Of a stretch of DNA of 64,000 nucleotides, positions 30,553 to 63,673 are shown one piece after another (the stretch's first letter is position 1; each line of letters begins with the position of its first letter). Source of the DNA: a virus. Lineage: Duplodnaviria; Caudoviricetes. The notes beneath the pieces were generated by a model. It was not told the DNA's origin, ran no database searches, and saw only the letters and a program-made list of their open reading frames with translations. The stretch is from positions 1 to 64,000 of IMG/VR virus record IMGVR_UViG_3300033067_001119; one strand, 5' to 3'. Made by a program: the position numbers and the translations under genes.

Positions 30553-30617
30553 GAGCCCCAATGGCTCGACCCGCACCTTATCGCACATCCCGGAGCGCCG
30601 GTCAACAGGATGTTTAC
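30553..30617 (-). promoter_or_regulatory. Repeated operator/promoter/hairpin element, copy 1
   Basis: GTAAAC-N5-GTTGAC, 33 nt, then GAGCCATTGGGGCTC. Confidence 0.85.
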
Positions 30618-33121
30618 GCTGCCCTCCGCTTCCGTGCCCCCGGGTACAGGTTCTTCGGCACCGGCTTGTGCTTGGCGCGCTCGGTCTCCTCGTAGCGGAT
30701 TTCGCTGTCGTTGCGCAGCAGGCCGAGGTCCCGCAGGTGCTTGATGCCCTGCGTCATGGCGTCCGTCAGATCGTCGTGCTTGCCCTTGGGGAAGATCGCC
30801 ATTTCGTCGATCAGGTCCTGCCCCCACTGCCGGAGCGGAAAGGGGATGTAGACCAGCTCTTGGCTGAACGCTGGCTGCACCGACTGCGCCCGCGCCCACT
30901 TGTCGCCCCTGGGCTCGATCAGCTGCACTGCCCAGCCTGCGTGCGGGTGCGAATTGGCCAACGACTGTGCGGCCGAGATGCCCGCCGACTTGTTCTCGAT
31001 CAGGAGCCGATCCGCCTTGCGCCGGGTGCAGGTGTCGGCCAGCCACTCCACAAGCCCCCAGCTGCGCATCTGGCGCTCGCGGAACGCAATCGCCTTCTCG
31101 CCCGGCTGCAGGGTGATCTTGGGCCCCGAGAACTTCAGGATGCGCCGCCACGCCTCGATCACCATGACGCGATTGTAGCCCTCCTCGTTCTGGAAGATGC
31201 CAAGGCAGACCGCCGCGCTCGGGTCGCTGTTCTCCTTCTGCCCGTAGGCCGAATCAACCGACACCACGACGTAGCTGAAGATCGGGAATTTGCCGTCTGC
31301 CGGGCTCCACGGCTGCCACCACTCGCGCTCGAAGATCGAGCCGCCGCGGGTCTCTGGCGTCTGCTGGTACTGGGAGTTGGACGATGCTAGCCCCCAGACC
31401 ACATAATTGCCGGTCGTGGTGGTTAGGCCGTAGACCTCCTCAGTCGCGTCCGGCTCAATCGATATTACCCGCTCCCGGCCGGTGAACATGCGCGAGTTGA
31501 TCGCACTCTCGATGATCCGGTCGCGCCATTTTGTGGGCTGCACCTGATGCAGAAAACGCTGATACAGAGACAACATGGAAGACCGGCCAGTTGGGCCAGC
31601 TTTGAGCCAATAGGAACGCACCGGCGCATGCCCTTTTGCCCTCTGCCGGTGGCGCATCCCATAATCGAGCCCCAACAGGCTCAAATTAGCCTCCAGCTTC
31701 TCGCACAGGGGCAAATTCTTGCCTGCAGACTGGGTAAATGAGATCAGAGCGCTGGCGCTATTATGTTCGCGGCGCAGGTTGAGAGAAACGGTACCCTCAC
31801 CATCAAAGAACCCAGCCAACCAACCTGCCGCCCGAACCTCGTCTGGGGCCAGCTGCGGTATTGCTGGCGGGCATACTCGACGCAACTCACCGCCAATCCA
31901 TGCTGGGGCATAGGGGGGATGAGCGGCATCATTGCGCCCGGTCCACCACCTATGGTTCGCGGTGCAGCGGATTGTTCGACCGCTGTCGAATGTGACCTTG
32001 ACGCAAGGCTGGAGTGATTTGTGGACATCCAGAACGGTGGCCTCTTGGTATCGAGCGCGCCGCCTGTTGTCACCGATCCTGAACCCCACAATCTTGTCCC
32101 CCGGCACAACGGTGCCGATGGGCCTCATTGACAGATCGGCCATCAAGATCGGGGCTTCATACGGGTTGCAAGCCCAAGCGAACTTGCTCGCGTCGGACTT
32201 CATGGTCGGGATGATGTGCTCCGGGAAGCGCTCCGGCCACGCCAGCTCACCGTCGCAGTCCTGCGGGCGTGGCTTCCAGCGGGGATCGACCCAGCCGATG
32301 CTGGTGGCGAGCGGCTGCCCGTTGTCGTCGGCCTGCCAGACGTACTCCATCGGGATCAGCAGGTGGCACCAGCCATCCATCGAGCTAATGATCTCGCCGG
32401 AGACGTCCTCCTCGTTCACCCGCTGCATGATGACGACCTTCGCGCCGGTCTCCATGTTGTTGAGGCGGGACGACAGTGATTCGCGGAACCAGCGGATGGT
32501 CTCCTGCCGGACTGCCTTGGACTCCGATTCCTTGACGTTGTGCGGGTCGTCGATGATGGCCCGGTCGCCGCGCTCGCCGGTGCCGACGCCGCCAACCGAG
32601 GAGGCCAGCTTCCAGCCGTGCCGCATGTTGGTGACCTTGGTCTCGCCGACCTTCCGCAGCTGGACGCGGTCGCCGTACATTTCCTGATATTCCGGGCAGG
32701 TCAGCAGGTCCTTGAAGCGACCGTTGTCGCGCTCCGTCAGCATCGAGGAGTAGCTGAAGGTCACATAGCGGATGTGAGGCTTGTTCATCGGGCCCCACTC
32801 CCACGCGGGCCAGAAGACGTCCGTCAGCAGGCTCTTCATGAAGCCCGGCGGGACGTTGATCAGGAGCTTGGTGATCTCCCCGAAGGTGACCGCCTCAAGG
32901 TGCTCGCAGATCGCTTCCAGAGCCCACCCATCGACAAACTTGGTCCCCGGCTCCAGAACTGACCAGAAGTAGCGGACGAACTCCAGCAGGCCTCCCCGCC
33001 ATACGCCATCGGCATCCCGGTATCCGCGCCGCTGCTGCAGCTTCTTGGCCTGCCGACGACGCATCACGGCCATCAGCTTGGCAAACTCGGCGTGCTCAGG
33101 CTGGGAGAGCGGCTGATTCAC
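30614..33121 (-). CDS. terL: Terminase large subunit (intein-containing)
   Basis: LLINVPPGFMKS, IIDDPHN, VVSVDSAY, IENKSAG, HDDLTDA. Confidence 0.95.
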   Translation of the reverse strand: MNQPLSQPEHAEFAKLMAVMRRRQAKKLQQRRGYRDADGVWRGGLLEFVRYFWSVLEPGTKFVDGWALEAICEHLEAVTFGEITKLLINVPPGFMKSLLTDVFWPAWEWGPMNKPHIRYVTFSYSSMLTERDNGRFKDLLTCPEYQEMYGDRVQLRKVGETKVTNMRHGWKLASSVGGVGTGERGDRAIIDDPHNVKESESKAVRQETIRWFRESLSSRLNNMETGAKVVIMQRVNEEDVSGEIISSMDGWCHLLIPMEYVWQADDNGQPLATSIGWVDPRWKPRPQDCDGELAWPERFPEHIIPTMKSDASKFAWACNPYEAPILMADLSMRPIGTVVPGDKIVGFRIGDNRRRARYQEATVLDVHKSLQPCVKVTFDSGRTIRCTANHRWWTGRNDAAHPPYAPAWIGGELRRVCPPAIPQLAPDEVRAAGWLAGFFDGEGTVSLNLRREHNSASALISFTQSAGKNLPLCEKLEANLSLLGLDYGMRHRQRAKGHAPVRSYWLKAGPTGRSSMLSLYQRFLHQVQPTKWRDRIIESAINSRMFTGRERVISIEPDATEEVYGLTTTTGNYVVWGLASSNSQYQQTPETRGGSIFEREWWQPWSPADGKFPIFSYVVVSVDSAYGQKENSDPSAAVCLGIFQNEEGYNRVMVIEAWRRILKFSGPKITLQPGEKAIAFRERQMRSWGLVEWLADTCTRRKADRLLIENKSAGISAAQSLANSHPHAGWAVQLIEPRGDKWARAQSVQPAFSQELVYIPFPLRQWGQDLIDEMAIFPKGKHDDLTDAMTQGIKHLRDLGLLRNDSEIRYEETERAKHKPVPKNLYPGARKRRAA
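31376..32170 (-). mobile_element. 265-aa intein with LAGLIDADG endonuclease in terL
   Basis: FAWA|CNPYEAPILMAD...CTANHRW...GWLAGFFDGEG...VYGLTTTTGNYVVWGLASSN|SQYQQ. Confidence 0.9.
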
Positions 33122-53509: not shown

Positions 53510-53512
53510 AAC

Positions 53513-53551
53513 AAAAAACCCGCCACGACCAGTCAAGGTCGGGCGGGTTTT
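53513..53551. terminator. Bidirectional intrinsic terminator
   Basis: AAAAAA-CCCGCC.CGACC...GGTCG-GGCGGG-TTTT between convergent units. Confidence 0.8.
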
Positions 53552-53555
53552 GTAT

Positions 53556-53626
53556 TGGCACCGGTGCAAGGTACTGCCCCCTGCGTCACGGGTTTGGAGT
53601 CCGCATAGCGCCTTGCGCCCACCGGT
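53556..53626 (-). tRNA. trnW: tRNA-Trp(CCA), atypical T-loop GGCAGTA
   Basis: Cloverleaf folded by eye; encoded CCA. Confidence 0.75.
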
Positions 53627-53629
53627 AAT

Positions 53630-53703
53630 TGGTACTGCCTGATGGTTACGCTCCATCGTGTCGCGGTCCACAGCCGCGCGCTCTGCTATTGAGCTAAGGC
53701 AGC
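53630..53703 (-). tRNA. trnH: tRNA-His(GTG), G1:U72/A73, T-loop AGCGTAA
   Basis: Cloverleaf; encoded CCA. Confidence 0.85.
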
Positions 53704-53709
53704 ATGAAA

Positions 53710-53780
53710 TGGTCCCGAAGCCCTGTGTCGATCAGGGCTGGCAGCCGTATGAAAGCTGCGTCCTCGCCGGAGGCATCGGG
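53710..53780 (-). tRNA. tRNA-Met/Ile2(CAT), T-loop ATCGACA
   Basis: Cloverleaf; loop TTCATAC. Confidence 0.75.
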
Positions 53781-53781
53781 A

Positions 53782-53852
53782 TGGCAGCGGCACACAGTGT
53801 CGAACTGTGCTCTCAGGTTTCAAAGACCCAATCCCTCACCGGAGGTGCCGCA
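53782..53852 (-). tRNA. trnQ: tRNA-Gln(TTG)
   Basis: Cloverleaf; loop CTTTGAA. Confidence 0.8.
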
Positions 53853-53857
53853 TCAAA

Positions 53858-53933
53858 TGGTAGAGCCTGCGGGTGCTGCCCCCGCTTCCCCGCTTTGAAA
53901 GAGCAGGCATCCTAGCTGGTAGACGAAGGCTCC
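53858..53933 (-). tRNA. trnE: tRNA-Glu(TTC), T-loop GGCAGCA
   Basis: Cloverleaf; loop CTTTCAA. Confidence 0.8.
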
Positions 53934-53934
53934 G

Positions 53935-54009
53935 TGGAGCAGGCAGGGAGAATCGAACTCCCTTGGAACGCCTTGGAAGGGCGACGACCAGCCAATGGCC
54001 CATACCTGC
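53935..54009 (-). tRNA. trnG: tRNA-Gly(TCC)
   Basis: Canonical cloverleaf; U73. Confidence 0.9.
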
Positions 54010-54050
54010 GTAATTCGCAATTCGCCGCGAATTACGGCGAATTGCGGAAT

Positions 54051-54138
54051 TGGCGGAAGGCCGGAGACACGATCACCACACCGTTGCCAGTGCCATGCCC
54101 TTAGCAGGGGCCGCCAGCGCCTCGCTGGTTGACCTTCC
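54051..54138 (-). tRNA. trnS: tRNA-Ser(GCT) with 8/4 architecture
   Basis: 8-bp acceptor, 4-bp T-stem, 6-bp D-stem, long variable arm, G73. Confidence 0.8.
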
Positions 54139-54140
54139 AT

Positions 54141-54217
54141 TGGTGCCCACGGGAAGATTCGAACTCCCCTAGTCCAGCTACGGTACCCCGCTTAGGAGGC
54201 GGGGCCGGTACGTGGGC
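54141..54217 (-). tRNA. D-armless tRNA-like gene, anticodon CCT (Arg)
   Basis: 7-bp acceptor, 6-nt linker, 6-bp anticodon stem, 17-nt variable region, TTCGAAT loop. Confidence 0.6.
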
Positions 54218-54221
54218 AAAT

Positions 54222-54298
54222 TGGAGCCCCGAGGGTGAGTCGAACACCCGCCGGATCGCGTTTAGAAGACGCGCGCTCTTCCGCTGAGCTATCGGGGC
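54222..54298 (-). tRNA. trnR: tRNA-Arg(TCT)
   Basis: Canonical cloverleaf. Confidence 0.9.
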
Positions 54299-54300
54299 AT

Positions 54301-54374
54301 TGGAGATGCGAGCGCGAGTCGAACGCGCTTCCTCGGCTTTGCAGGCCGGTCCATGGCCGTTCTGGCATCGCATC
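54301..54374 (-). tRNA. trnC: tRNA-Cys(GCA)
   Basis: Cloverleaf; U73. Confidence 0.9.
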
Positions 54375-54378
54375 ATGT

Positions 54379-54448
54379 TGGCTGCGGACGAGGGTCTCGA
54401 ACCCGCTTCACCCGGTTCAGAGCCGGGCTTACTCCCTGAGTATCCGCA
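54379..54448 (-). tRNA. trnQ: tRNA-Gln(CTG)
   Basis: U1:A72; short D-arm. Confidence 0.8.
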
Positions 54449-54451
54449 AAA

Positions 54452-54528
54452 TGGTCTGGATGGCAGGCTTCGATCCTGCGGCCCCTCGCTTCCGAAGCGA
54501 GTGCTCTTCCGGGCTGAGCTACATCCAG
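54452..54528 (-). tRNA. trnP: tRNA-Pro(CGG), T-loop ATCGAAG
   Basis: C1:G72, A73. Confidence 0.9.
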
Positions 54529-54533
54529 ATGAA

Positions 54534-54610
54534 TGGTGATCCCGCGAGGATTCGAACCCCGACCTCCCAGATTCGTAGTCTGGCGCATTATCCAGTTGTG
54601 CTACGGGACC
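54534..54610 (-). tRNA. trnR: tRNA-Arg(ACG)
   Basis: Canonical cloverleaf. Confidence 0.9.
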
Positions 54611-54614
54611 GTTT

Positions 54615-54689
54615 TGGCGCTGCATGGGAGAATTGAACTCCCGTTCTCCGCGTGAGAGGCGGGCATCCTGACCACTAGACGAATGCAGC
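54615..54689 (-). tRNA. trnE: tRNA-Glu(CTC)
   Basis: Canonical cloverleaf. Confidence 0.9.
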
Positions 54690-54694
54690 ATGAT

Positions 54695-54769
54695 TGGCTC
54701 TGCTCCGAGGAATCGAACCTCGCTCGCATGCGTTAACAGCGCAGCCGCACACCTTGTGCGTTGAGCAGA
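54695..54769 (-). tRNA. trnN: tRNA-Asn(GTT)
   Basis: U1:A72, G73. Confidence 0.9.
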
Positions 54770-54776
54770 ACAGAGA

Positions 54777-54848
54777 TGGTGGAGTGACGGAGAGTTGAAC
54801 TCCGGACGGCAATCTTGCAAGGATCGCCTGCAGCCCGCTGCTCACCCC
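54777..54848 (-). tRNA. trnA: tRNA-Ala(TGC)
   Basis: G3:U70 present; reduced D-arm. Confidence 0.8.
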
Positions 54849-54852
54849 ATGT

Positions 54853-54928
54853 TGGTGCCCTGCGCCTGATTCGAACAGGCCTCCTGCGCTCTTCAGGCGC
54901 GTGCAATCACCAGATTTGCTAACAGGGC
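54853..54928 (-). tRNA. trnF: tRNA-Phe(GAA)
   Basis: Canonical cloverleaf. Confidence 0.9.
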
Positions 54929-54957
54929 GAATTGTGGGATTTTCCCACAATTCAAAT

Positions 54958-55031
54958 TGGAGCGGCCAGTCGGTTACGATCCGACGTCTCATCGTTGGCA
55001 ACGATGAACTCTGCCATTGAGCTATGGCCGC
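54958..55031 (-). tRNA. trnG: tRNA-Gly(GCC), T-loop ATCGTAA
   Basis: Cloverleaf; U73. Confidence 0.85.
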
Positions 55032-55032
55032 G

Positions 55033-55117
55033 TGGTGGGTAACCCGTGAATCGAACACGGCATGCCCGAAGGCGCAGCTTTTACAGAGCCGCTCAGTCAC
55101 CAGACTTGGCGTTACCC
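55033..55117 (-). tRNA. trnY: tRNA-Tyr(GTA)
   Basis: Long variable arm GCC-TTCG-GGC. Confidence 0.9.
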
Positions 55118-55122
55118 GAGAT

Positions 55123-55197
55123 TGGTTGCGGGAAAGGGACTTGCACCCCTGACCTCCGAGTTATGAGCCCGGCGAGCTGCTACTGCTCCACCCCGCG
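55123..55197 (-). tRNA. trnfM: Initiator-type tRNA-fMet(CAT), T-loop TGCAAGT
   Basis: C1xA72 mismatch; GGG in anticodon stem. Confidence 0.85.
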
Positions 55198-55201
55198 ATA
55201 A

Positions 55202-55277
55202 TGGTGCGCCGCTTGAACTCGGTCGCGCATCGACAAGTACATCCGTTGTTCGATGGAATTAGCGCTTGTAGCACATC
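55202..55277 (-). ncRNA. CCA-ending tRNA-like element of unassigned identity
   Basis: GTTCAA and CCA end; CATCG/CGATG stem; no cloverleaf. Confidence 0.35.
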
Positions 55278-55368
55278 TGGCGGGCGAGGGGTAGTAACGC
55301 TCTCCATGCCCGGTGGGCACCTTTGGTTTTCGAGACCAAGCTGGGGACTTCCCGCAGTTCTCTCGCCC
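55278..55368 (-). tRNA. trnS: tRNA-Ser(CGA) with extended acceptor and long D-stem
   Basis: 8-9 bp acceptor, T-loop AGCGTTA, long variable arm, G73. Confidence 0.7.
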
Positions 55369-55372
55369 GTGT

Positions 55373-55448
55373 TGGTGGTCCCCCGGTGATTCGAACACCG
55401 TGTCTCCCGCTTCGGAGGCGGGTGCCTTGTCCATCCGGCTCGGGGACC
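55373..55448 (-). tRNA. trnR: tRNA-Arg(CCG)
   Basis: Canonical cloverleaf. Confidence 0.9.
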
Positions 55449-55449
55449 G

Positions 55450-55827
55450 TTACTTCCTGCCCTTGCGGCGCACGTTGCCGCGGGCGTCGTAGTTGCCGGT
55501 CGGCCAGTAGCGGTTCATCTTCACCTCGCCGACCAGGCCGTCGTCGGTGAATACCGCCGGGCCCTTCAGCGTCTTGCCGTCGACCGCCTGCTCGAACGCA
55601 AGGTAGCTTCCGCCCGCATCCGGGCTCGCTGGGTTGACGAAAAACAGATCGAGGTCCGTTGGCTCATCCAGCGGGACGGGCACTCCAGCAGCCTCGCAGG
55701 CCCGGTAAAGGGCATCCCTGTATTGCTGGATTACCGCCTGATGCATCCGCCGGTGCGGTGCGTCGTGTATCCAGAGACGGAGCAGCGCCGGGAAGCGCTG
55801 GCCGTCATACTGTACCTTGATCTTCAT
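55450..55827 (-). CDS. Divergent RusA-like protein inside tRNA array
   Basis: LDLFFVNPASPDAGG...FEQAVDG...VFTDDGLV. Confidence 0.5.
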   Translation of the reverse strand: MKIKVQYDGQRFPALLRLWIHDAPHRRMHQAVIQQYRDALYRACEAAGVPVPLDEPTDLDLFFVNPASPDAGGSYLAFEQAVDGKTLKGPAVFTDDGLVGEVKMNRYWPTGNYDARGNVRRKGRK

Positions 55828-55837
55828 GGTGGGCCTT

Positions 55838-55903
55838 TGGTGGAAGCGGCGGGCTGGGTGAGCCCGCTAATCACTCTGTTATGAGCAGAGGGTCTCCGCT
55901 TTT
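55838..55903 (-). tRNA. D-armless tRNA-like remnant (CAT) overlapping the GIY-YIG 3' end
   Basis: CTCTG-CTCATAA-CAGAG arm, GCGGGC/GCCCGC T-like arm, CGCTTCC-A-CCA. Confidence 0.5.
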
Positions 55904-56404
55904 CGACTTCACTTCCCTCTGACGTTGCCACTGCAGGATCGCGGCTTGGCGCAGTCTCTCCCTATGCTCCGGCGATTTGGTGCGCCCCTTGTGGGCTAGG
56001 CCACCCTTTCGCCCGTTCTCACGAAGCTGCTCTTTGGCAAGAGAAAATATCCCAGTTCCACGATCTCGATTTGCGACCCCGCCCCGGCTTTGACTTTTGG
56101 ACGCGAATGCGCCCTTGCGGGCGTTCTCCGCGGTAAATCCACCAACACCACCGCGACGCATATTGTAGGTGCGCGACACACGGTAATCGGCGGTCAATTC
56201 CACTTCTTTTGCGTAAGCCTCAGCACTGGTGTCAAAAACGAACAACACGTCCTTGCGGAAGGAACGCTTGCCATGCTTCCGGATCGCAGCGCGGATAGCT
56301 CGACCACTCCCGAAGTATCCATCATTCGGATTGTCCGTCTTGTGGACACCGACGTAGGTCTTGCCGTTGGCCAGATTAGTGATGCGGTAGACGGTGAACA
56401 TCAC
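55871..56404 (-). CDS. GIY-YIG homing endonuclease with NUMOD3-like tail
   Basis: TVYRITNLANGKTYVG...YFGSG; HKGRTKSPEHRERL. Confidence 0.9.
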   Translation of the reverse strand: MMFTVYRITNLANGKTYVGVHKTDNPNDGYFGSGRAIRAAIRKHGKRSFRKDVLFVFDTSAEAYAKEVELTADYRVSRTYNMRRGGVGGFTAENARKGAFASKSQSRGGVANRDRGTGIFSLAKEQLRENGRKGGLAHKGRTKSPEHRERLRQAAILQWQRQREVKSKSGDPLLITE

Positions 56405-56447
56405 CGCACTATATCACAGGCCTTCCCATCTGGCTCAACGTGCGAAT

Positions 56448-56524
56448 TGGTCGGAGCGGCAGGATTTGAACCCGCGTATGCCTGCTCCCAAAGCAGGTGG
56501 TCGGCCAGACTGACCCACACTCCG
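56448..56524 (-). tRNA. trnP: tRNA-Pro(TGG)
   Basis: Canonical cloverleaf. Confidence 0.92.
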
Positions 56525-56629
56525 ATGTTCCCTCTCGTGGCGACGACGATGCGTCTTATCCGGCGCAGAAGTGTGGGACCTTGGTCACCACAGCGCTACC
56601 TCCAGTACGCCACGCCCCGGGGGACATGA
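56525..56629 (-). ncRNA. Unassigned ~105-nt structured RNA between tRNAs
   Basis: Nested stems CGTGGCG/CGCCACG, GCGC/GCGC, TGTGG/CCACA, GACC/GGTC. Confidence 0.4.
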
Positions 56630-56630
56630 T

Positions 56631-56705
56631 TGGCGATCCTGTCGGGTTACGATCCCGATTTGCTCCCGTGACAGGGGAGTAGCTTAGCCACTAGCTGACA
56701 GGACC
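56631..56705 (-). tRNA. trnD: tRNA-Asp(GTC), T-loop ATCGTAA
   Basis: Cloverleaf; G73. Confidence 0.88.
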
Positions 56706-56706
56706 T

Positions 56707-56782
56707 TGGTGTGCGTGGGGTGATTCGAACACCCGCTGTACAGGTTCTCGGCCTGCTCTCTCTGCCACTGGAGTACACGCAC
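56707..56782 (-). tRNA. trnL: tRNA-Leu(GAG), short variable loop, C33
   Basis: Cloverleaf; loop CCGAGAA. Confidence 0.8.
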
Positions 56783-56787
56783 ATTGT

Positions 56788-56863
56788 TGGTACACCCTCG
56801 GAGAATCGAACTCCGCCCTCATGGTTTAAGAGACCAGCGCACGAACCAACATGCTCAGGGTGT
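56788..56863 (-). tRNA. trnK: tRNA-Lys(CTT)
   Basis: Cloverleaf. Confidence 0.88.
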
Positions 56864-56868
56864 GTGAG

Positions 56869-56951
56869 TGGAGGACGTCGGAGGTTACGATCCTCATGCG
56901 ACGCGGTTTAAAAGACCGGCCCAAAGCCACTCTGGTTTACGCTCGACGTCC
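56869..56951 (-). tRNA. trnK: tRNA-Lys(TTT) with 8/4 architecture, U73
   Basis: GGACGTCG/CGACGTCC, GAGG/CCTC, 6-bp D-stem. Confidence 0.7.
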
Positions 56952-56956
56952 GTATC

Positions 56957-57160
56957 TCAGGACGCCGGTTTGCTGATGTTCTTCTCTTCGCACACCACGA
57001 TGGTGCCGGTGTCGCGGAAGTGATGCACCCAGCGTCGCCGCAGGCGCACGGGCACAAGCCCAAACTGGCAGTGGACGCATGGCGATGCTGCAGCCGCCCA
57101 TTCCTTCCATGCCTTCATCGAAGTCTCGACGAGAGGCCAGTCCGTTGCTGCCGTAGTCAT
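56957..57160 (-). CDS. Small Cys/His protein inside tRNA array
   Basis: CVHC...WVHH...C; AGGAG RBS. Confidence 0.5.
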   Translation of the reverse strand: MTTAATDWPLVETSMKAWKEWAAAASPCVHCQFGLVPVRLRRRWVHHFRDTGTIVVCEEKNISKPAS

Positions 57161-57173
57161 GGCGCTCTCCTGT

Positions 57174-57248
57174 TGGTGCTCGGAAGCGGCTTGCAACCGC
57201 CATGCGAGGCGTACGACGCGGCCTGCCCGCACCTTGCTAAGCCCGAGC
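57174..57248 (-). tRNA. Thr(CGT)-like tRNA with degenerate anticodon stem
   Basis: Good acceptor and T-stem, T-loop TTGCAAG, weak anticodon arm. Confidence 0.5.
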
Positions 57249-57252
57249 CTGT

Positions 57253-57326
57253 TGGTAGTCCCTGCTGGTTCTGCCCCAGCGTCGCACGGTTATCGGCCGC
57301 GCATTCTGCTATTGAACTAAGGGACC
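57253..57326 (-). tRNA. trnI: tRNA-Ile(GAT), C33, T-loop GGCAGAA
   Basis: Cloverleaf. Confidence 0.85.
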
Positions 57327-57330
57327 GTGA

Positions 57331-57405
57331 TGGTACGCGCTGCAGGTGCTGCCCCTGCCGCCTCCAGCGTGTCGAGCTGGCGATCTGCTGATGATCTAAG
57401 CGCGC
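57331..57405 (-). tRNA. trnV: tRNA-Val(GAC), C33, T-loop GGCAGCA
   Basis: Cloverleaf. Confidence 0.85.
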
Positions 57406-57410
57406 ATGAA

Positions 57411-57484
57411 TGGTAGTCCCTGACGGTACCTCCCCGCCTTCACCAGCGTGTAAAACTGGCGCATCAATTTAATGCTTAGGGACC
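57411..57484 (-). tRNA. trnV: tRNA-Val(TAC), T-loop GGAGGTA
   Basis: Cloverleaf. Confidence 0.8.
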
Positions 57485-57485
57485 A

Positions 57486-57562
57486 TGGTACCCGCGGCGT
57501 GATTTGAACACGCACTGTAACTTGTTTTGAGCAAGTGGCCTCTGCCGTTGGGCTACGCGGGC
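57486..57562 (-). tRNA. trnL: tRNA-Leu(CAA), short variable loop
   Basis: Cloverleaf; 6-nt variable region. Confidence 0.85.
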
Positions 57563-57566
57563 ATGG

Positions 57567-57643
57567 TGGTGTCCGCCCGGAGATTCGAACTCCGAACCTT
57601 CGCATTCTGAGTGCGACGCCTCTGCCAGTTGGGCTAGGCGGAC
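57567..57643 (-). tRNA. trnL: tRNA-Leu(CAG), short variable loop
   Basis: Cloverleaf; 5-nt variable region. Confidence 0.88.
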
Positions 57644-57644
57644 A

Positions 57645-57721
57645 TGGAGCCCGGCCGGGGTTACGATCCCCGTCCTCGCCCTTACCGGGGGCGTGTGCTG
57701 GCCATTGATCACTAGCCGGGC
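57645..57721 (-). tRNA. trnT: tRNA-Thr(GGT), C33, T-loop ATCGTAA
   Basis: Cloverleaf. Confidence 0.85.
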
Positions 57722-57802
57722 ATGTAGGCGGGAGCGTCCTAACCAACTAGACGAACAGGCCTGACGGCCCGTGGTGGATTCGAACCACCGTTTCTCCCTG
57801 CT
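57722..57802 (-). ncRNA. Circularly permuted, anticodon-less tRNA-like RNA (Asp/Glu-type body)
   Basis: 3' half (GGGAG-AAAC-GGTGG-TTCGAAT-CCACC-ACGGGCC-GTCA) precedes 5' half (GGCCTGT-TCGTCTAGTTGGTTAGGAC-G-CTCCC). Confidence 0.8.
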
Positions 57803-57877
57803 TGGAGCCCATGCCGATGCTCGAACTCGGCTCTCACCCTTACAAGGGGCGCGCGTCGCCATCTACGCTTCATGGGC
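57803..57877 (-). tRNA. trnT: tRNA-Thr(TGT)
   Basis: Cloverleaf. Confidence 0.88.
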
Positions 57878-57880
57878 AAA

Positions 57881-57955
57881 TGGTGCTGCCTCGGTGCCTC
57901 GAACACCGGTCACCGCTTTACGAGGGCGGCGCTCTTCCTGTTGAGCTAAGGCAGC
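57881..57955 (-). tRNA. trnT: tRNA-Thr(CGT)
   Basis: Canonical cloverleaf. Confidence 0.9.
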
Positions 57956-59930: not shown

Positions 59931-60620
59931 CTATCCCCCTAGATTAAATGTCTTCCAAGTCTGAGGCCCGCATACTCCATCAACCACTATGTGATGCGTG
60001 AGTTGATAGCCCTTCAGCGCCGTCTCCGTCATGATCCCAAAATCACCGTCGACGCTCTTGCCAGTAAAGCCTAGCCTTATCTGCAGCAGCCTCACGGTGT
60101 CTCCGTGGTCTCCCTTCCGGATCGTTGGCGGCATCGTCGCCAGCGGCTGCGGCAGGTGCGGAGGGTAGTCCGTCTCGGCCGCAGGCGCAGGCTTGGAGGA
60201 GCCGTCGAACTTCCACAGCCTCTCGTTGTCGTAGTGAGACTTATCTGATTTCACGGAAATATGACAGTGGTGATCGTGCGGATTCACTCCGGCGTACCTG
60301 CGCCATGCCCACGGGCTCGGGCCCTCGTTGCCGGACGCGATACGGTGGTTGGAGATGATGTACTTGATGCGGTCATCACGGCTGTCGAGCAATGCCTGCG
60401 CGAGCTTGTAGCTGTCGCAGCCGCTCGCCGGATCGTGGGTAATGTCCTCTGCAGTGACGACGCCGATTGCGCCGTCCTTCACCCACGGATTATGGTCGGA
60501 GCTGCGGGATGCGTGCGCGGCATCACCGATGGTGCCGTCGTTTTCCTTGCGGCGGTTGGGCCATTCGGCGTTCACCTGCTCCCGCAAAATCAAGAGGCTC
60601 TTTGCAACACGCCAAGACAT
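59931..60620 (-). CDS. Endolysin: zinc peptidase (M15-like) + peptidoglycan-binding domain
   Basis: DGTIGDAAH, SDHNP, NPHDHHCHIS; IRKGDHG...VDGDFG...VDGVCGPQTW. Confidence 0.85.
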   Translation of the reverse strand: MSWRVAKSLLILREQVNAEWPNRRKENDGTIGDAAHASRSSDHNPWVKDGAIGVVTAEDITHDPASGCDSYKLAQALLDSRDDRIKYIISNHRIASGNEGPSPWAWRRYAGVNPHDHHCHISVKSDKSHYDNERLWKFDGSSKPAPAAETDYPPHLPQPLATMPPTIRKGDHGDTVRLLQIRLGFTGKSVDGDFGIMTETALKGYQLTHHIVVDGVCGPQTWKTFNLGG

Positions 60621-60670: not shown

Positions 60671-63600
60671 CTAGGGACGCTGCTGTTCCTCGTCGGCGCG
60701 TGTTGGGCTGGGGCCCTGAAGTCGTCGCACCGTATTCCCAAGGATCGACTGGTTGCGCATCAGGTACGACGGGAGGGGAGCCTTTGGCGGCAGTAGCCGC
60801 GGGGCCTCGTCCTCCAGATTATCCAGAGACCGGCCGACCTTCTTTGCGTTGCGCATTTCGGTGAAGCGTTCGCCGCCCTTCTCCAGAAGATGCTTGACGC
60901 CGATGCCAGCAAAGCCACCTTCGGCACCGCCGGTAAGGATTGAACCGATGCTGGCCATGATGGCGGCGCCGTACTTGCGCAGTGCCCCCATAATCGCTGG
61001 CGTCGTGTCCGAGTTTGTGCGGGCGTATTTCGGGATGATGGTGAGGCGTAGCGCCTTTGCGTAGCGGTCCATCATGGCGCGCTGCTCTTCCGTGTAGAGA
61101 GCCTTGGCGACCGACGCGCCCTTGCCATGCAGCAGCTCGCTGATGTTGTTGACGACGGCCTGCTGCCCCTTCCCCGAGCGGCCCTCGGTATTTGCAATCG
61201 TCTTCTGCCAGACACCCTGACGAACCGCAGCCATCGCTGGGCTGCCAGAGCCTGTCACGCGCTCGATGGCTGTAATCATGCGCGCCACGTTGCCCGGATT
61301 ACCGCCACCGATGGCATTGAAAACGACGCTGGAGACTTCCTCCGGAGTAGCGGTGCCTTCGACAATGCGACGGAAGGTCGCCTGCTGGCCACCGCCGATG
61401 CCCTGCCCGCCAAACGCGCTGTCAAACATCTGTTGGGCCTGCTCGGCATCGCGCGTCGCCGGGTGAGACGCAATCGACCTCTCCAGATCGCGGATGCCCT
61501 GCGCGTGAGAGCGCATCGCGGCCCGCTCCTGTGGAGTAAACATGCGCTGCGCCAGCGAGGAGCCAACGAAATCCAAGATGCCCTGAGCCGACTTTGCCGG
61601 GTCAATCTCTCCGGCGGAGTTCCGCGCCTGAGATGCCTTCTGCCACATCGCCTGCCGGATGGCGCTCCAGCCATCCGAATCAGCACCCAGCACCTGCTCC
61701 AGCCGGTCGGCAAGACGTACCGGGGTGCCGGAGTTGCCGATCTTGCCGGTGCCGATGATCATGTTGGCGATTTCTTCCGGCGTTGCGTTGCGCTCGGTGA
61801 TGCGCCGCATGGCGGTGCCCACGTCGTCCCCAGCGCCCCGTGGGGTGAAGGTCTGACGATAGCGCGCATAGGATGCCCTCGCCTCCTGCAACGCAGCCAG
61901 TGCCCTTGGATCGCCCGAGAAAAGGCCCTCTGTGATGGCTCGCTCGATCTGGGCGTCGAAGGCATCCATGATGCCCTGCATGGCGCGGGCGTCGGTCGCT
62001 CCGTTGGGTCCCGAGGCGCGGGCAGCCTGATAGTAAGCCACCAGCTTCTTGCGCATCTGGTCGACACCCTTGAGACTCACAGCGGTGACTTCGGCCGGGT
62101 CCGGAGCTGCGCGCGGATCGGCGCGGTTCTGGATGCGCGGAGCCGACATCTGGTCGAGGTCGCGGATTGCTCGCGATGCCACCGGCGTCAGCTGGTCGTC
62201 GATGATGATCGGATTTTCGCGCAGCGTCAGATCGTTCTGGACGCGGTTTCCCATACCGCGCACGGCATCGACCCTGAACTCGCCGGGGAGGCGACCGAAC
62301 TCATCGTAGCGGGAGCGAAATTCTCCGCGGTTTGCTGCGGCTGCATCTCGCACGTTCTGGCCGACGACCTCGCCCATCTCGCGCGGGTTCTCGATAGGCT
62401 GAGCCGGGCCACGCACCGCCTCATTGATGGCGCGACCTTGGTCTGCGACCATCCCGCGCTGAGCTTCGGCTTCAGTATTGGAGCGATGCAAAACACGATC
62501 TACGATGGTCTTCGCCTGCTGAAGACGATCACCCATCTCCCCCGTGATGGCAGAGGCAGCCTCGTTGGGATCGCTGACAGGGTGCGCTCCGCCCAAGCCG
62601 GTGCCAATCTCTCGCCCGGCTTCCTGAGTCCTTCCGTACTGGTCATCGAAGAACGTGGCCGCCTTGTCCTGCGCTGGCTTGCCATACGCGCCGCGCGCCG
62701 ACAGGTCTTCGTACCGGATCGCATCCAAATCCTGCGTGGCCTGCCCCTTGGACAGTGGAATTTTGAACTCAGCCGCCACATCCTTGTTGGCAGCTACTTC
62801 CGGCGGAATAGGCGGCCGGACAGGCAGCGCACGAGGCACCGCAAACAGGCCGCCTCCGGGCGCGCCGGGCGTCATGAATTGAACCGCCCGCATCGCATCC
62901 GGACCGCCACGTCCGAGGGCGGCATCGTATTCTTTCTGGCTCCCCGCCTCGCGGGCAGCTACGGCATCATGCGAGCTGTCAACAGCGCCCTTGATGCCCT
63001 GCCACGCCTCTTTCGCCATCCATAGCGGGCCGCCCGGCGTTGCCTTCTCCCACATGTTTGAGATGCGGTCGCTCCACGTCTTCTTCGGAGCCTCGGCAGG
63101 AGCATCATCCCATTTCACGCCACCAGCATCGGCGGCGTCATCATCCCACTTCACCCGGCCGCCCTCGGCGCGGTTCTTCACCGGCACCGTGGTGTCTTCC
63201 TCGCGCAGCCAGCGCTTGAACTGAGGGATGTCCATCTCGGTCATGTGCCCAATGCGGTCACGGCCACGACCATCAGAGAAAGCTGCGTGGTAGGCTGCCT
63301 CGGCCTGCGCCTTGCTGCCAAATCCGAGGAAGCACTTGTGCTCGTCGAAGCCGCCGGTGTGAAGATCGTTCTGGTCGATCACGAAGACCTTCGGGCTCTT
63401 CAGGTGAGGCCCGAGATAGACGTCGACGTGCGCACCATCTCCGCCGGTCGTGTTGCGGATGTAGCCGTAGTGGTGCGGGAGCCGGGATTTCCACGCCTTG
63501 CCGGTGCGCGCATCCTTGCCGCTACGATACGAGCCACGCGGGTTCTCGATGGAGATGTCGAGCCCGTGAACCCTGATGTGGCCCTTCCTGTAGTTGCCCG

Positions 63601-63673
63601 CGCGCTTCTGTCCGTCGCTCGGGTTGCGATTGACGGCACTGGCCTGCTCGGCGATTTGAGCGGAGAGGCTCAC
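60671..63673 (-). CDS. Polyvalent/internal virion protein with N-terminal InPase-like domain
   Basis: GNYRKGH...ISIENPRGS...HYGYI...DGAHVDVY...IDQ...FDEHK; long helical remainder. Confidence 0.8.
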   Translation of the reverse strand: MSLSAQIAEQASAVNRNPSDGQKRAGNYRKGHIRVHGLDISIENPRGSYRSGKDARTGKAWKSRLPHHYGYIRNTTGGDGAHVDVYLGPHLKSPKVFVIDQNDLHTGGFDEHKCFLGFGSKAQAEAAYHAAFSDGRGRDRIGHMTEMDIPQFKRWLREEDTTVPVKNRAEGGRVKWDDDAADAGGVKWDDAPAEAPKKTWSDRISNMWEKATPGGPLWMAKEAWQGIKGAVDSSHDAVAAREAGSQKEYDAALGRGGPDAMRAVQFMTPGAPGGGLFAVPRALPVRPPIPPEVAANKDVAAEFKIPLSKGQATQDLDAIRYEDLSARGAYGKPAQDKAATFFDDQYGRTQEAGREIGTGLGGAHPVSDPNEAASAITGEMGDRLQQAKTIVDRVLHRSNTEAEAQRGMVADQGRAINEAVRGPAQPIENPREMGEVVGQNVRDAAAANRGEFRSRYDEFGRLPGEFRVDAVRGMGNRVQNDLTLRENPIIIDDQLTPVASRAIRDLDQMSAPRIQNRADPRAAPDPAEVTAVSLKGVDQMRKKLVAYYQAARASGPNGATDARAMQGIMDAFDAQIERAITEGLFSGDPRALAALQEARASYARYRQTFTPRGAGDDVGTAMRRITERNATPEEIANMIIGTGKIGNSGTPVRLADRLEQVLGADSDGWSAIRQAMWQKASQARNSAGEIDPAKSAQGILDFVGSSLAQRMFTPQERAAMRSHAQGIRDLERSIASHPATRDAEQAQQMFDSAFGGQGIGGGQQATFRRIVEGTATPEEVSSVVFNAIGGGNPGNVARMITAIERVTGSGSPAMAAVRQGVWQKTIANTEGRSGKGQQAVVNNISELLHGKGASVAKALYTEEQRAMMDRYAKALRLTIIPKYARTNSDTTPAIMGALRKYGAAIMASIGSILTGGAEGGFAGIGVKHLLEKGGERFTEMRNAKKVGRSLDNLEDEAPRLLPPKAPLPSYLMRNQSILGNTVRRLQGPSPTRADEEQQRP

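Follow-up and report, generated by a model that had tools for sequence, protein, structure and literature searches.

A compact, putatively mobile tRNA array for all 20 amino acids in an uncultured phage, with many genes that standard finders miss

Phage tRNA clusters of 15-37 genes are known, with eight clusters carrying all 20 isotypes (PMC6409571), and irregular 8/4 tRNAs have already been published in alphaproteobacterial phage clusters. A host tRNA depletion and evasion hypothesis has likewise been published for tRNA-rich phages (PMC10264068), and bacterial L-arrays contain homing endonucleases and are induced by translational stress (PMC8421152). The array described here lies in a 64,000-nt stretch (the window) of the 74,452-bp genome of an uncultured phage (GC 62%) whose hosts are probably Bradyrhizobium-like soil bacteria, and is a very compact example of this known mobile 'spare tRNA' module rather than a new system. 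A first-pass annotation held that such sets come mostly from larger phages, which is broadly right, as cluster-bearing genomes have a median of 148 kb (range 72-617 kb; PMC6409571) versus 74,452 bp here.

The array spans 4.4 kb of the minus strand (57955-53556), with its position, strand and density as first annotated. Its tRNAs lie head to tail on one strand only, separated by 0-6 nt (1-10 nt had been claimed). Manual parsing and orthologue alignments support 35 tRNA genes, each encoding N-CCA (35/35), and their 34 different anticodons (CAT occurs twice) cover 20/20 amino acids, bearing out the complete set and the encoded CCA ends noted earlier. The earlier count of 37 anticodon-bearing genes reduces to these 35 plus one degenerate unit (57174-57248, minus strand; anticodon position CGT). 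This unit retains its acceptor stem (7/7), T stem (5/5) and ACCA end, has 3/5 anticodon-stem pairs and a fold z-score of -0.3, had no orthologue in related arrays and is probably a pseudogene. Lysis genes immediately precede the array, with an endolysin gene upstream, and the array closes the minus-strand late block on its 3' side. The stop codon of the upstream ORF falls within the 5' end of tRNA-Thr(CGT), leaving no intergenic gap, and a search ahead of the array for a sigma-70-like promoter found none. At the far end, the bidirectional terminator recognized previously (53510-53555; a hairpin set between A and U runs) folds strongly on either strand (z -6.0 and -5.9) and is common to the array and a converging plus-strand operon.

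ARAGORN at default settings reported 23 tRNAs for 15 amino acids, all inside the array, and zero in the rest of the 74,452-bp genome; Rfam RF00005 matched 18 at gathering score and one more at an E-value threshold. A relaxed scanner requiring a cloverleaf followed by NCCA gave 26 distinct matches in the array and one elsewhere (both strands), versus 0.2 per shuffled strand. ARAGORN had been expected to miss atypical genes, and it missed 12 supported ones: two Val, Ile, Ala, Trp, two Ser, Lys-UUU, Arg-CCU, Glu-UUC, Gln-UUG and a second CAU. Orthologue alignments of these 12 show 86-100% of pairs intact and 4-17 pairs per gene compensatory; such compensatory changes, along with synteny across related arrays, support their being real genes. 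About one third of the set is too oddly built for standard finders, and roughly two thirds is canonical.

The finder-detected genes, like all array tRNAs, are on the minus strand. ARAGORN and Rfam both recovered tRNA-Thr(CGT) (57881-57955), Thr(TGT) (57803-57877), Leu(CAG) (57567-57643; also parsed), Leu(CAA) (57486-57562), Lys(CTT) (56788-56863), Leu(GAG) (56707-56782; C33 in its anticodon loop), Pro(TGG) (56448-56524), Arg(CCG) (55373-55448), Gly(GCC) (54958-55031), Phe(GAA) (54853-54928), Glu(CTC) (54615-54689), Arg(ACG) (54534-54610), Pro(CGG) (54452-54528), Cys(GCA) (54301-54374), Arg(TCT) (54222-54298) and Gly(TCC) (53935-54009), together with an initiator-type tRNA-fMet(CAT) (55123-55197), which on parsing has a C1.A72 mismatch, T-loop TGCAAGT and D-loop AGTAGCA, and tRNA-His(GTG) (53630-53703). 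ARAGORN also found Thr(GGT) (57645-57721; on parsing C33 and T-loop ATCGTAA), Asp(GTC) (56631-56705; parsed with 0 mismatches), Tyr(GTA) with a long variable arm (55033-55117), Asn(GTT) (54695-54774) and a 70-nt Gln(CTG) with a reduced D arm, U1 and G73 (54379-54448), which scores only 21 bits in Rfam and has orthologues in relatives L005 and L016. All three tRNA-Leu have a short variable arm, with A73 in CAG and CAA; among Leu(CAA) orthologues (alignment A6), those of L013, L016 and L015 are long-armed and those of the window, L001, L004, L006 and L014 armless. tRNA-His has G1:U72, A73 and a G55 T-loop (AGCGTAA) and lacks G-1, as in the alphaproteobacterial delta-G-1 type (identity rule in PMC3064791); G1:U72 occurs in 11/11 aligned sequences and A73 in 10/11. 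Identity marks are also kept by Ala (G3:U70), Ser (long arm and G73), Gln (U1/G73), Trp (G73), Leu (A73) and the initiator (C1.A72).

Only three aberrant tRNAs had been recognized at first, which proved too few: we found three of 8/4 type, one without a D arm and several with mini D arms. Missed by both ARAGORN and Rfam were tRNA-Val(TAC) (57411-57484), with T-loop GGAGGTA and a D-loop lacking GG, which parses with 0 mismatches, is 97% identical to L006 5023-5096 and shows compensatory change in 14/21 pairs across seven orthologues; tRNA-Val(GAC) (57331-57405), with C33 and an A18/G55 elbow (D-loop ATCAGCA, T-loop GGCAGCA; seven orthologues, 100% of cells paired, 10/21 pairs compensatory); and tRNA-Glu(TTC) (53858-53933), again with an A18/G55 elbow (T-loop GGCAGCA; nine orthologues, 97% of cells paired, 13/21 compensatory). 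Both tools also missed tRNA-Lys(TTT) (56869-56951), which has an 8-bp acceptor and 4-bp T stem, a long D stem, U73 and acceptor-stem covariation with orthologues in L004, L010 and L015; the Sec/allo-tRNA-like tRNA-Ser(CGA) (55278-55368), with a 6-bp D stem, 4-nt loop, long variable arm and G73, which covaries across six orthologues, those of L001 and L012 matching Rfam tRNA-Sec at 45.8 and 49.4 bits; and the 8/4 allo-tRNA-like tRNA-Ser(GCT) (54051-54138), with a 6-bp D stem and G73, whose copies in L001, L005, L013 and L016 are 90-97% identical. The same holds for tRNA-Gln(TTG) (53782-53852; U1.U72, G73, reduced D arm; 8/20 pairs compensatory across six orthologues), the second CAT tRNA, an elongator Met or Ile2 with a reduced D arm (53710-53780; nine orthologues, 99% of cells paired, 12/20 compensatory), and tRNA-Trp(CCA) (53556-53626; loop CUCCAAA, G73, mini D arm, T-loop GGCAGTA), which closes the array here and in relatives and keeps every pair in its L008 orthologue, four of them compensatory. 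tRNA-Ile(GAT) (57253-57326), with an A18/G55 elbow and C33, reached 42.2 bits in an E-value search of Rfam only (11 orthologues, 99% of cells paired, 16/21 compensatory). ARAGORN default missed tRNA-Ala(TGC) (54777-54848; G3:U70, A73, and a mini D arm immediately following the acceptor stem; eight orthologues, 99% of cells paired, 13/22 compensatory). tRNA-Arg(CCT) (54141-54217), missed by ARAGORN, lacks a normal D arm and runs from acceptor through TACCGG and the anticodon arm to a D-arm-like GTAGCTGGAC; its acceptor stems covary fully in the L008, L014 and L016 orthologues.

Across 285 tRNAs, the D-loop covaries with nucleotide 55: a U at this position goes with GG in the D-loop in 239 cases, and a G (25 cases) goes with GG in 0/25 and with AG in 21/25. 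Such tertiary covariation argues for folded, selected molecules and, with the compensatory changes in the odd tRNAs, for purifying selection on structure. Orthologues switch between canonical and A18/G55 elbows. U33 is near-universal in tRNAs, but C33 replaces it in four window tRNAs and in 19/344 tRNAs of the lineage, varying among orthologues.

Protein-coding sequence takes up about 1.1 kb of the 4.4 kb; the array had been read as RNA genes only, overlooking three protein genes and a tRNA-Met remnant, all on the minus strand. A GIY-YIG (SegE-like) homing endonuclease gene (55871-56404; Pfam PF19835 and PF01541) has inserted in place of a tRNA-Met and destroyed it. Upstream of it lies a 33-nt 5' remnant of tRNA-Met(CAT) comprising the acceptor and D arm (56412-56444), which matches the first ~33 nt of tRNA-Met in L005, L001 and L013 and diverges from the anticodon stem on (alignment A5); of the 3' end no more than ~9 nt are left (55836-55828), and in relatives this tRNA-Met(CAT) precedes the RusA-like ORF. 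Because the phage persists despite this loss, single members are dispensable. Similar endonuclease genes sit elsewhere in the L004, L008 and L010 arrays, giving four positions in four arrays, a repeated invasion resembling that of SegB in the T4 tRNA region. The second gene encodes a divergent 125-aa RusA-like protein (55450-55827) with 72 representative relatives; a profile of its family (A4) matches E. coli RusA (PDB 1q8r) at E 1.4e-4, and its AF2 model (pLDDT 45) was unusable. The third, a 67-aa ORF with a CxxC...C motif and a Shine-Dalgarno sequence (56957-57160), is conserved in related arrays, aligning with ORFs of L010 and L013 and with L001 17137-17262, and had no match in Pfam or PHROG searches.

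At least 14 uncultured IMG/VR phages carry this array in the same order, several of these array-bearing relatives being 100% complete (69-71 kb and 103 kb), and the RusA-like gene is a marker present in every related array. Even where protein identity has fallen to 45-50%, related arrays share their gene order and almost every member. In Bradyrhizobium sp. BR13661 the same array stands alone in the chromosome, encloses an RtcB RNA ligase gene and is bordered by ordinary genes for 20 kb on either side, and a search of that genome for the window phage's portal and virion protein found neither. Relative L012 encodes Ro60 and a YrlA-like RNA; both RtcB and Ro60 are absent from the window phage. 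That one ordered set, with its embedded RusA-like gene, turns up on different phage backbones and in a lone chromosomal copy points to a mobile module, and the chromosomal copy shows that it is not tied to infection.

The array reads 89% of 18,398 phage codons under strict wobble and 97% if U34 is allowed to decode all of a four-codon box. The uncovered 3-11% comprises Ser UCY/UCA, Leu CUA/UUA and Ile AUA, to which strict wobble adds Ala GCC/GCU and Pro CCY, so the phage still needs host tRNAs. Coverage of all 20 amino acids and 89-97% of codons is unlike selective codon compensation and fits the 'wholesale replacement' first proposed for the array.

We favour, with moderate confidence, the reading that the phage-borne long array is a spare-tRNA operon, as in tRNA-rich phages and bacterial L-arrays. 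It would be transcribed as a single long precursor, probably by read-through from the late and lysis genes, a timing of expression that we infer; host RNase P would cut this precursor, 3' exonucleases would trim it and host synthetases would charge the products. Late phage translation could then be largely freed from host tRNA supply when host tRNAs drop or are cleaved, whether through host defence, a stress response or the phage's own shut-off, and replacement of the host tRNA pool is plausible. A specifically anti-defence function, with defence anticodon nucleases destroying the host pool and remodelled phage tRNAs resisting them, has published precedent (PMC10264068, PMC11464382, PMC11555353), and PrrC/RloC, PARIS, retron PtuAB, VapC and Schlafen-type enzymes are tentative candidates for the nucleases. 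The 8/4 build of Lys-UUU, a known nuclease target, would suit it, as would the variable C33 loops, the alternation of elbows among orthologues and, circumstantially, the remodelling of many members (A18/G55 elbows, 8/4 Lys-UUU and Ser, D-armless Arg-CCU) and the RNA-damage genes of related modules (RtcB in Bradyrhizobium, Ro60 with a YrlA-like RNA in L012). We regard it as possible but doubtful, as some two thirds of members are canonical, the same odd designs also occur in a bacterial chromosome and would count as 'self' there, anticodon nucleases are not known to be stopped by changes to the elbow or branch, and the window phage itself lacks RtcB and Ro60.

Codon-usage or host-range tuning, by which tRNAs supplement phage-favoured codons or suit hosts whose tRNA pools differ, is how phage tRNAs have classically been explained (cited in PMC10264068) and would accord with a module present in several phage backbones. 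It is unlikely here: the set is unselective and covers the commonest phage codons (CUG, GGC, AAG, GAG, CGC), which any 62-64% GC host would supply well, the few codons omitted are mostly minor, and the phage GC of 62% is in line with that of the inferred host group. That the array is largely a selfish cassette, spread by homing endonucleases and recombination with little phage benefit and with odd tRNAs as decaying copies, seems quite improbable given the conserved order and membership, the compensatory and tertiary covariation of the odd tRNAs and the retained identity elements, although GIY-YIG genes have entered four arrays and one destroyed the window tRNA-Met, one unit is degenerate, and identity is mosaic (Val-TAC 97% with L006 and Ser-GCT 95-97% with L001, L013 and L016, versus ~50% for the embedded protein).

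Three further RNAs had been proposed, and two are conserved; the third, a 106-nt minus-strand spacer (56525-56630), folds with z -1.2 and had no orthologue in related arrays. The first of the conserved pair is a circularly permuted tRNA-like RNA (57722-57802, minus strand; MFE fold z -3.1) that runs from a T arm through a 7-bp acceptor hairpin closed by GUCA to a D arm, with an open CTCCC/GGGAG stem, a topology as in the tRNA-like domain of YrlA (Y RNA). Against Rfam YrlA it scores 20.7 bits over positions 30-81 (E 0.019, under the gathering score), and syntenic copies in L001 (16629-16704) and L016 (2985-3055) keep all helices despite changed sequence. The other (55202-55277, minus strand), which had no match in an Rfam search, combines a hairpin bearing an invariant CGGAUGUAC loop with a T-arm-like minihelix ending in ACCA; it always lies immediately upstream of tRNA-fMet, and its stems covary across the window, L001, L005, L006, L008, L010, L011, L013 and L014. 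Two minus-strand hairpins also punctuate the array, a perfect 11-bp GAATTGTGGGA/TCCCACAATTC stem between Gly and Phe (54929-54953; z -4.6) and a 13-bp CGCAATTCGCCGT-loop-GCGGCGAATTGCG stem between Ser and Gly (54016-54046; z -6.3).

The minus-strand stretch at 57955-53556 carries 35 supported tRNA genes with 34 anticodons, covering all 20 amino acids, in a 74,452-bp genome (62% GC; CheckV completeness 100%) of which the window is the first 64 kb. Its members are specific for Thr (three), Leu (three), Val (two), Ile, Lys (two), Asp, Pro (two), Arg (four), Ser (two), initiator Met, Tyr, Gly (two), Phe, Ala, Asn, Glu (two), Gln (two), Cys, His and Trp, together with a second CAU tRNA. ARAGORN with default settings identified 23 tRNA genes, every one of them minus-strand and within 57955-53630, with zero in the rest of the genome, and the Rfam tRNA model found 18 at its gathering score plus Ile-GAT in an E-value search. 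The RF00005 gathering score (29 bits) was reached by 19 of the 35 genes, Gln-CTG scored 21 bits and 15 had no RF00005 match; about a third of the array members escape both ARAGORN and Rfam. The five amino acids absent from the ARAGORN set (Val, Ile, Ser, Ala and Trp) are all carried by non-canonical genes, so that routine annotation would give 23 tRNAs and 15 isotypes instead of 35 and 20, an undercount that biases surveys that count phage tRNAs or look for ‘missing’ isotypes.

The genes called by ARAGORN or Rfam are separated by tRNA-sized gaps ending in N-CCA. We scanned with relaxed rules for units made up of a 7-bp acceptor stem, a T stem of 5 bp closing a 7-nt loop of any sequence, a D stem and an anticodon arm (5-bp stem, 7-nt loop), followed by NCCA; this gave 26 distinct matches within the array, against one in the rest of the genome (both strands) and 0.2 per shuffled strand. 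ARAGORN with lowered thresholds produced 145 calls genome-wide and was uninformative. The final count comes from a unit-by-unit parse checked against orthologues. CCA is encoded by all 35 genes, neighbours lie 0–6 nt apart, and the array is closed by a hairpin, bordered by A and U runs, whose fold is as strong on one strand as on the other (z about -6). At about 8 tRNA genes per kb (35 in 4.4 kb), it lies well within the Morgado and Vicente definition of a cluster (at least 15 genes, at least 2 per kb); like L-arrays, it is contiguous, in one orientation (minus) and closed by a single terminator, a layout compatible with one transcript. The tRNAs alone occupy 2.7 kb, or 3.6% of the genome. The first-pass annotation, made from the sequence alone, had described a dense array with a bidirectional terminator and had expected gene finders to miss its atypical members, all of which our analysis bears out (ARAGORN 23 of 35, Rfam 19 of 35); its tally of 37 anticodon-bearing genes comes close to the 35 retained after the orthologue-checked parse, and it overlooked three protein genes.

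Evidence that the missed tRNAs are genuine comes from related phages, gathered from IMG/VR by searches with the 125-aa array ORF (13 loci) and with the upstream 1000-aa protein (one locus). All 14 loci, several of them complete genomes of 69–71 kb or 103 kb, hold the array in the same gene order. In orthologue alignments of missed tRNAs and of His, helices are kept through compensatory change, with 86–100% of alignment cells paired and 4–17 compensatory pairs per tested tRNA: Val-TAC (14/21), Val-GAC (10/21), Ile-GAT (16/21), Glu-TTC (13/21), His (17/21), Ala (13/22), the second CAU tRNA (12/20), Gln-TTG (8/20) and Trp (4/21, from one orthologue only). Orthologues of Ser-CGA, Ser-GCT, Lys-TTT and Arg-CCT are conserved and their acceptor stems covary. 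Identity elements match the anticodons, including G3:U70 and A73 in Ala, G1:U72 and A73 in His, G73 in Ser, Gln and Trp, U1 in both Gln tRNAs, A73 in the Leu tRNAs and a C1.A72 mismatch in the initiator. One further unit, 57248-57174, is regarded as a pseudogene: it lacks both an orthologue and a fold signal, and its anticodon stem pairs poorly.

Tertiary contacts covary as well. Among 285 lineage tRNAs, U55 in the T-loop accompanies GG in the D-loop in 239, and G55 never does, being paired with AG in 21 and with neither in 4; orthologues switch the D-loop and position 55 jointly. This covariation, together with the kept helices, argues for array tRNAs that are folded and selected. Seven window tRNAs carry G55 (57331-57484, comprising two Val tRNAs, 57253-57326, 55123-55197, 53858-53933, 53630-53703 and 53556-53626), with T-loops GGCAGNA, GGAGGTA, AGCGTAA and TGCAAGT and D-loops lacking GG; AG replaces the D-loop GG in Val-GAC, Ile, fMet, Glu-UUC and His. 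C33 takes the place of the near-universal U33 in Thr-GGT (57645-57721), Val-GAC (57331-57405), Ile-GAT (57253-57326) and Leu-GAG (56707-56782), and in 19 of 344 ARAGORN-called tRNAs of related arrays, differing between orthologues.

Departures extend to whole arms. All three window Leu tRNAs (57486-57643 and 56707-56782) lack the long variable arm, and the alignment of Leu-CAA orthologues holds long-arm, intermediate and armless forms, at 85–89 nt in the related loci L013, L015 and L016, 80 nt in L005 and 76–77 nt in the shortest. Ser-GCT combines an 8-bp acceptor stem with a 4-bp T stem (3/4 paired), a 6-bp D stem and G73, and Ser-CGA has seven acceptor pairs plus A.C, a T stem of 4 bp and a D stem of 6 bp that closes an AAGT loop; orthologues match Rfam tRNA-Sec. 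On predicted structure, both are of the (8/4) allo-tRNA-Ser type, defined by a 12-bp branch split 8/4, a long D stem with a tetraloop, a long variable arm and G73 or U73. Lys-UUU also has an 8/4 build, and His a 7/5 build. Arg-CCU (54141-54217, minus strand) lacks a D arm at the normal position; its anticodon arm is bracketed by a direct repeat, GTACCG, and a D-arm-like segment, GTAGCTGGAC, comes after that arm. This build is kept in L008, L014 and L016, and a canonical Arg-CCU occupies the position in L001 and others.

The array is interrupted by three minus-strand protein genes. One, encoding a GIY-YIG (SegE-like) homing endonuclease (56404-55871), stands where relatives have a tRNA-Met(CAU) whose CCA overlaps the start ATG of the following ORF. 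Of that tRNA the window keeps only ~33 nt at the 5' end and ~9 nt at the 3' end, indicating that the endonuclease gene replaced it; location within a group I intron of tRNA-Met was rejected, because the anticodon 3' strand and T arm are absent and only the ends are left. A promoter-like TTGAGC...TATAGT before the gene was also discarded, being largely tRNA-Met remnant. Similar endonuclease genes sit at different array positions in L004, L008 and L010. The T4 tRNA region with SegB (cited in PMC8421152) is alike in having a GIY-YIG gene inside a phage tRNA cluster that cuts or replaces tRNA genes; T4 has 8 tRNAs, whereas the window insertion deleted most of a tRNA-Met.

The second gene, a 125-aa ORF (55827-55450), is present in every related array, and the window protein matches nothing in Pfam or PHROG. 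A profile built on 45 members of its family matches E. coli RusA (PDB 1q8r; E 1.4e-4) over the DLDN...DD region, so the product is predicted to be a divergent RusA-family protein. The family consensus reads PDLDN...DD, and the window protein has PDAGG, with the second Asp missing. The catalytic Asp triad of E. coli RusA is D70, D72 and D91. An AlphaFold model built from 14 sequences (pLDDT 45) was too poor for a fold search. We found no support for a tRNA-processing role of this ORF, the profile pointing to the RusA family instead. The third gene, a 67-aa CxxC ORF (57160-56957), is kept in at least three other arrays.

Two conserved RNAs accompany the tRNAs. The unit at 57802-57722 (minus strand) folds as a circularly permuted tRNA-like element, with a T arm, a 7-bp acceptor hairpin closed by GUCA and a D arm, and copies at the same array position in L001 (16629-16704) and L016 (2985-3055) have changed in sequence and kept all helices. 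This arm order is that of the tRNA-like domain of the Y RNA YrlA (PMC4201824). With 20.7 bits against a gathering score of 69 for Rfam YrlA (RF02553), the unit would not be classed as YrlA and shares the topology of the tRNA-like domain alone; unlike YrlA RNAs that accompany Ro60/Rsr and RtcB (PMC4201824), it lacks the long Ro60-binding stem and resides in a phage without Ro60. A better YrlA match (34.6 bits) occurs in L012 (3478-3547), immediately before a Ro60 gene (TROVE and vWA domains) that lies within the L012 array. The second RNA, at 55277-55202 (minus strand), consists of a covarying hairpin, whose invariant 9-nt loop CGGAUGUAC contains AUG, and, after it, a T-arm-like minihelix with ACCA at its end. 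It lies always just upstream of the initiator tRNA, in nine arrays, with relatives in L001 (~18510-18573), L010 (~2170-2250), L011 (~1530-1600) and L014 (~6830-6900) and also in L005, L006, L008 and L013, and has no Rfam match. Two perfect AATTC-rich hairpins between tRNAs, 54953-54929 (11 bp) and 54046-54016 (13 bp), both on the minus strand, could be processing or protein-binding sites. A 106-nt spacer at 56630-56525 showed no orthologue and no significant fold.

The array also bears on the host. Its tRNA-His has G1:U72 in 11 of 11 aligned sequences, A73 in 10 of 11 and no G-1, which makes it the delta-G-1 type, confined to Caulobacterales, Parvularculales, Rhizobiales and Rhodobacterales (PMC3064791). 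Roseobacter, Pelagibacter and Caulobacter are the hosts of the nearest portal relatives, and the same ordered array with its RusA-like gene occurs both in an alphaproteobacterial MAG and on a chromosomal contig of 360 kb from Bradyrhizobium sp. BR13661. Together, these features point to a host among Rhizobiales or related alphaproteobacteria. The BR13661 copy (NZ_JARXWB010000006.1, about 203.8–209.2 kb) comprises at least 24 tRNAs, the RusA-like gene and, inside the array, an RtcB ligase. Genes for DHDPS, PdxA and Fe-ADH lie upstream, GST, TetR, sulfatase and TonB-receptor genes downstream, and RND efflux genes on both sides. Phage portal and virion-protein queries had no match in BR13661, and location in a prophage of this phage's type was rejected on that ground and on the ordinary gene content of the 20 kb on each side.

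The distribution of the array is patchy and matches horizontal spread, spanning phages of 69–71 kb and 103 kb and, on its own, a Bradyrhizobium chromosome. The nearest relative in GenBank, MW202675, lacks it and has one tRNA, and Rhizobium phage RHph_I1_6 (77 kb) has only three tRNAs in the matching region. Megablast of the array found no cultured relative and blastn found scattered single-tRNA matches only; tBLASTn of the RusA-like marker gave no match in 50,697 phage records or 72,556 plasmids.

Upstream of the array, on the same strand, are genes for large virion proteins, an endolysin (59931-60620) and small ORFs, the last of which overlaps the first array tRNA. No sigma-70-like promoter was found upstream of or inside the array, and the array shares its terminator with a recombination block (ERF, YqaJ, HNH, NinB) that runs towards it on the plus strand. 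We infer that the array is co-transcribed with the late and lysis genes. A single precursor would then be processed by host RNase P and exonucleases, and its products charged by host synthetases, giving late phage translation a supply independent of the host pool. Under strict wobble rules the array reads 89% of the phage's 18,398 codons, rising to 97% if U34 reads whole four-codon boxes. The codons without an array tRNA are Ser UCY and UCA, Leu CUA and UUA, and Ile AUA (unless the second CAU tRNA is Ile2), joined under strict wobble by Ala GCC and GCU and Pro CCY.

Such breadth argues against selective codon compensation as the reason for carrying the tRNAs. A replacement pool, as initially proposed, is plausible. 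The depletion of host tRNAs may come from defence nucleases, as in the initial proposal and in an idea already published for tRNA-rich phages (PMC10264068), from general stress or from phage-induced shut-off. A role when tRNAs are depleted or damaged would fit the RtcB and Ro60/YrlA of relatives and the behaviour of L-arrays, which act under translational stress (PMC8421152) and to whose back-up pool we liken the phage set by analogy; integrase, RtcB and Ro60 (TROVE) genes were not found in this phage genome.

Some tRNA features could reflect evasion of nucleases, namely the 8/4 Lys-UUU, the switching of elbow types between orthologues and C33 (variable between orthologues, in four window and 19 of 344 lineage tRNAs); against this, a bacterial chromosome carries tRNAs of the same designs, and two out of three members of the set are canonical. 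An extension of this thought, which we consider rather unlikely, is that a structurally ‘marked’ private pool lets an enzyme separate phage from host tRNAs, so that translation continues when the host pool is lost, and that the kit is mobile. The marks would be the A18/G55 elbows, the 8/4 branches (Ser, Lys-UUU), the D-armless Arg-CCU, the armless Leu tRNAs and C33, and the discriminating enzyme either a defence nuclease of the host or an activity with which the phage shuts the host off. The kit and its YrlA-like decoy, with RtcB or Ro60 in relatives, would travel between phages and Bradyrhizobium chromosomes as a single module.

The array is not a new kind of system. Virus tRNA clusters range from 15 to 37 genes at 2–10 per kb in genomes of 72–617 kb (median 148 kb), mostly of virulent tailed phages, and eight have all 20 isotypes (Morgado and Vicente 2019, PMC6409571); the window array resembles them in having at least 15 genes on one strand and, like some, 20 isotypes. 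What makes it notable is a near-maximal cluster (35 against a reported maximum of 37) in a near-minimal genome (74.5 kb against 72–617 kb), and the share of its members that escape detection. C1 mycobacteriophages carry a 36-tRNA cluster (PMC10264068). Jumbo phage XacN1 also has a complete isotype set, with 56 tRNAs in 385 kb as against 74.5 kb here, and unlike the window array its tRNAs lie in terminal repeats (PMC5852040). L-arrays, with up to 43 genes, horizontal spread and homing-endonuclease neighbours (PMC8421152), are alike in being long, non-periodic, one-strand arrays of supernumerary tRNAs next to a homing endonuclease; the Anabaena PCC 7120 trn operon is likened by organisation, the window array lying in a phage late operon. 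Similar in tRNA type are the metagenomic alphaproteobacterial phage clusters of Mukai et al. 2017 (PMC5389517), which include 8/4 tRNA-Ser and tRNA-His and delta-G-1 tRNA-His and were reported along with polycistrons of irregular tRNAs. Both sets have Sec/allo-like Ser tRNAs and a His without G-1 and with A73, whereas the window His is 7/5, and the 8/4 Lys-UUU, D-armless Arg-CCU, armless Leu and A18/G55 elbows have no counterpart in the passages compared.

A mid-sized phage can thus carry an almost self-sufficient decoding set, and the same ordered module in phages and a Bradyrhizobium chromosome, linked to the RNA-repair genes RtcB and Ro60/YrlA, ties phage clusters directly to bacterial L-arrays. 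The array is an extreme case that is well documented, and its lineage supplies a natural series of apparently functional, non-standard tRNAs. The series includes Leu arm loss with intermediate forms, the exchange of G18:U55 for A18:G55, 8/4 branches and C33, and could serve tRNA engineering and tests of which features tRNA-targeting defences recognise.

Two large minus-strand ORFs elsewhere in the window have further domain matches. The 1000-aa protein at 60671-63673 carries an InPase (PF18823) domain at its N terminus and is probably a virion protein, either ejected or internal; homologous N-termini are variously annotated as DarB-like, methylase or head protein in other phages. The 835-aa large terminase (30614-33121) has a weak mid-protein LAGLIDADG match (E 0.006), suggestive of an intein or of an endonuclease domain inserted there.
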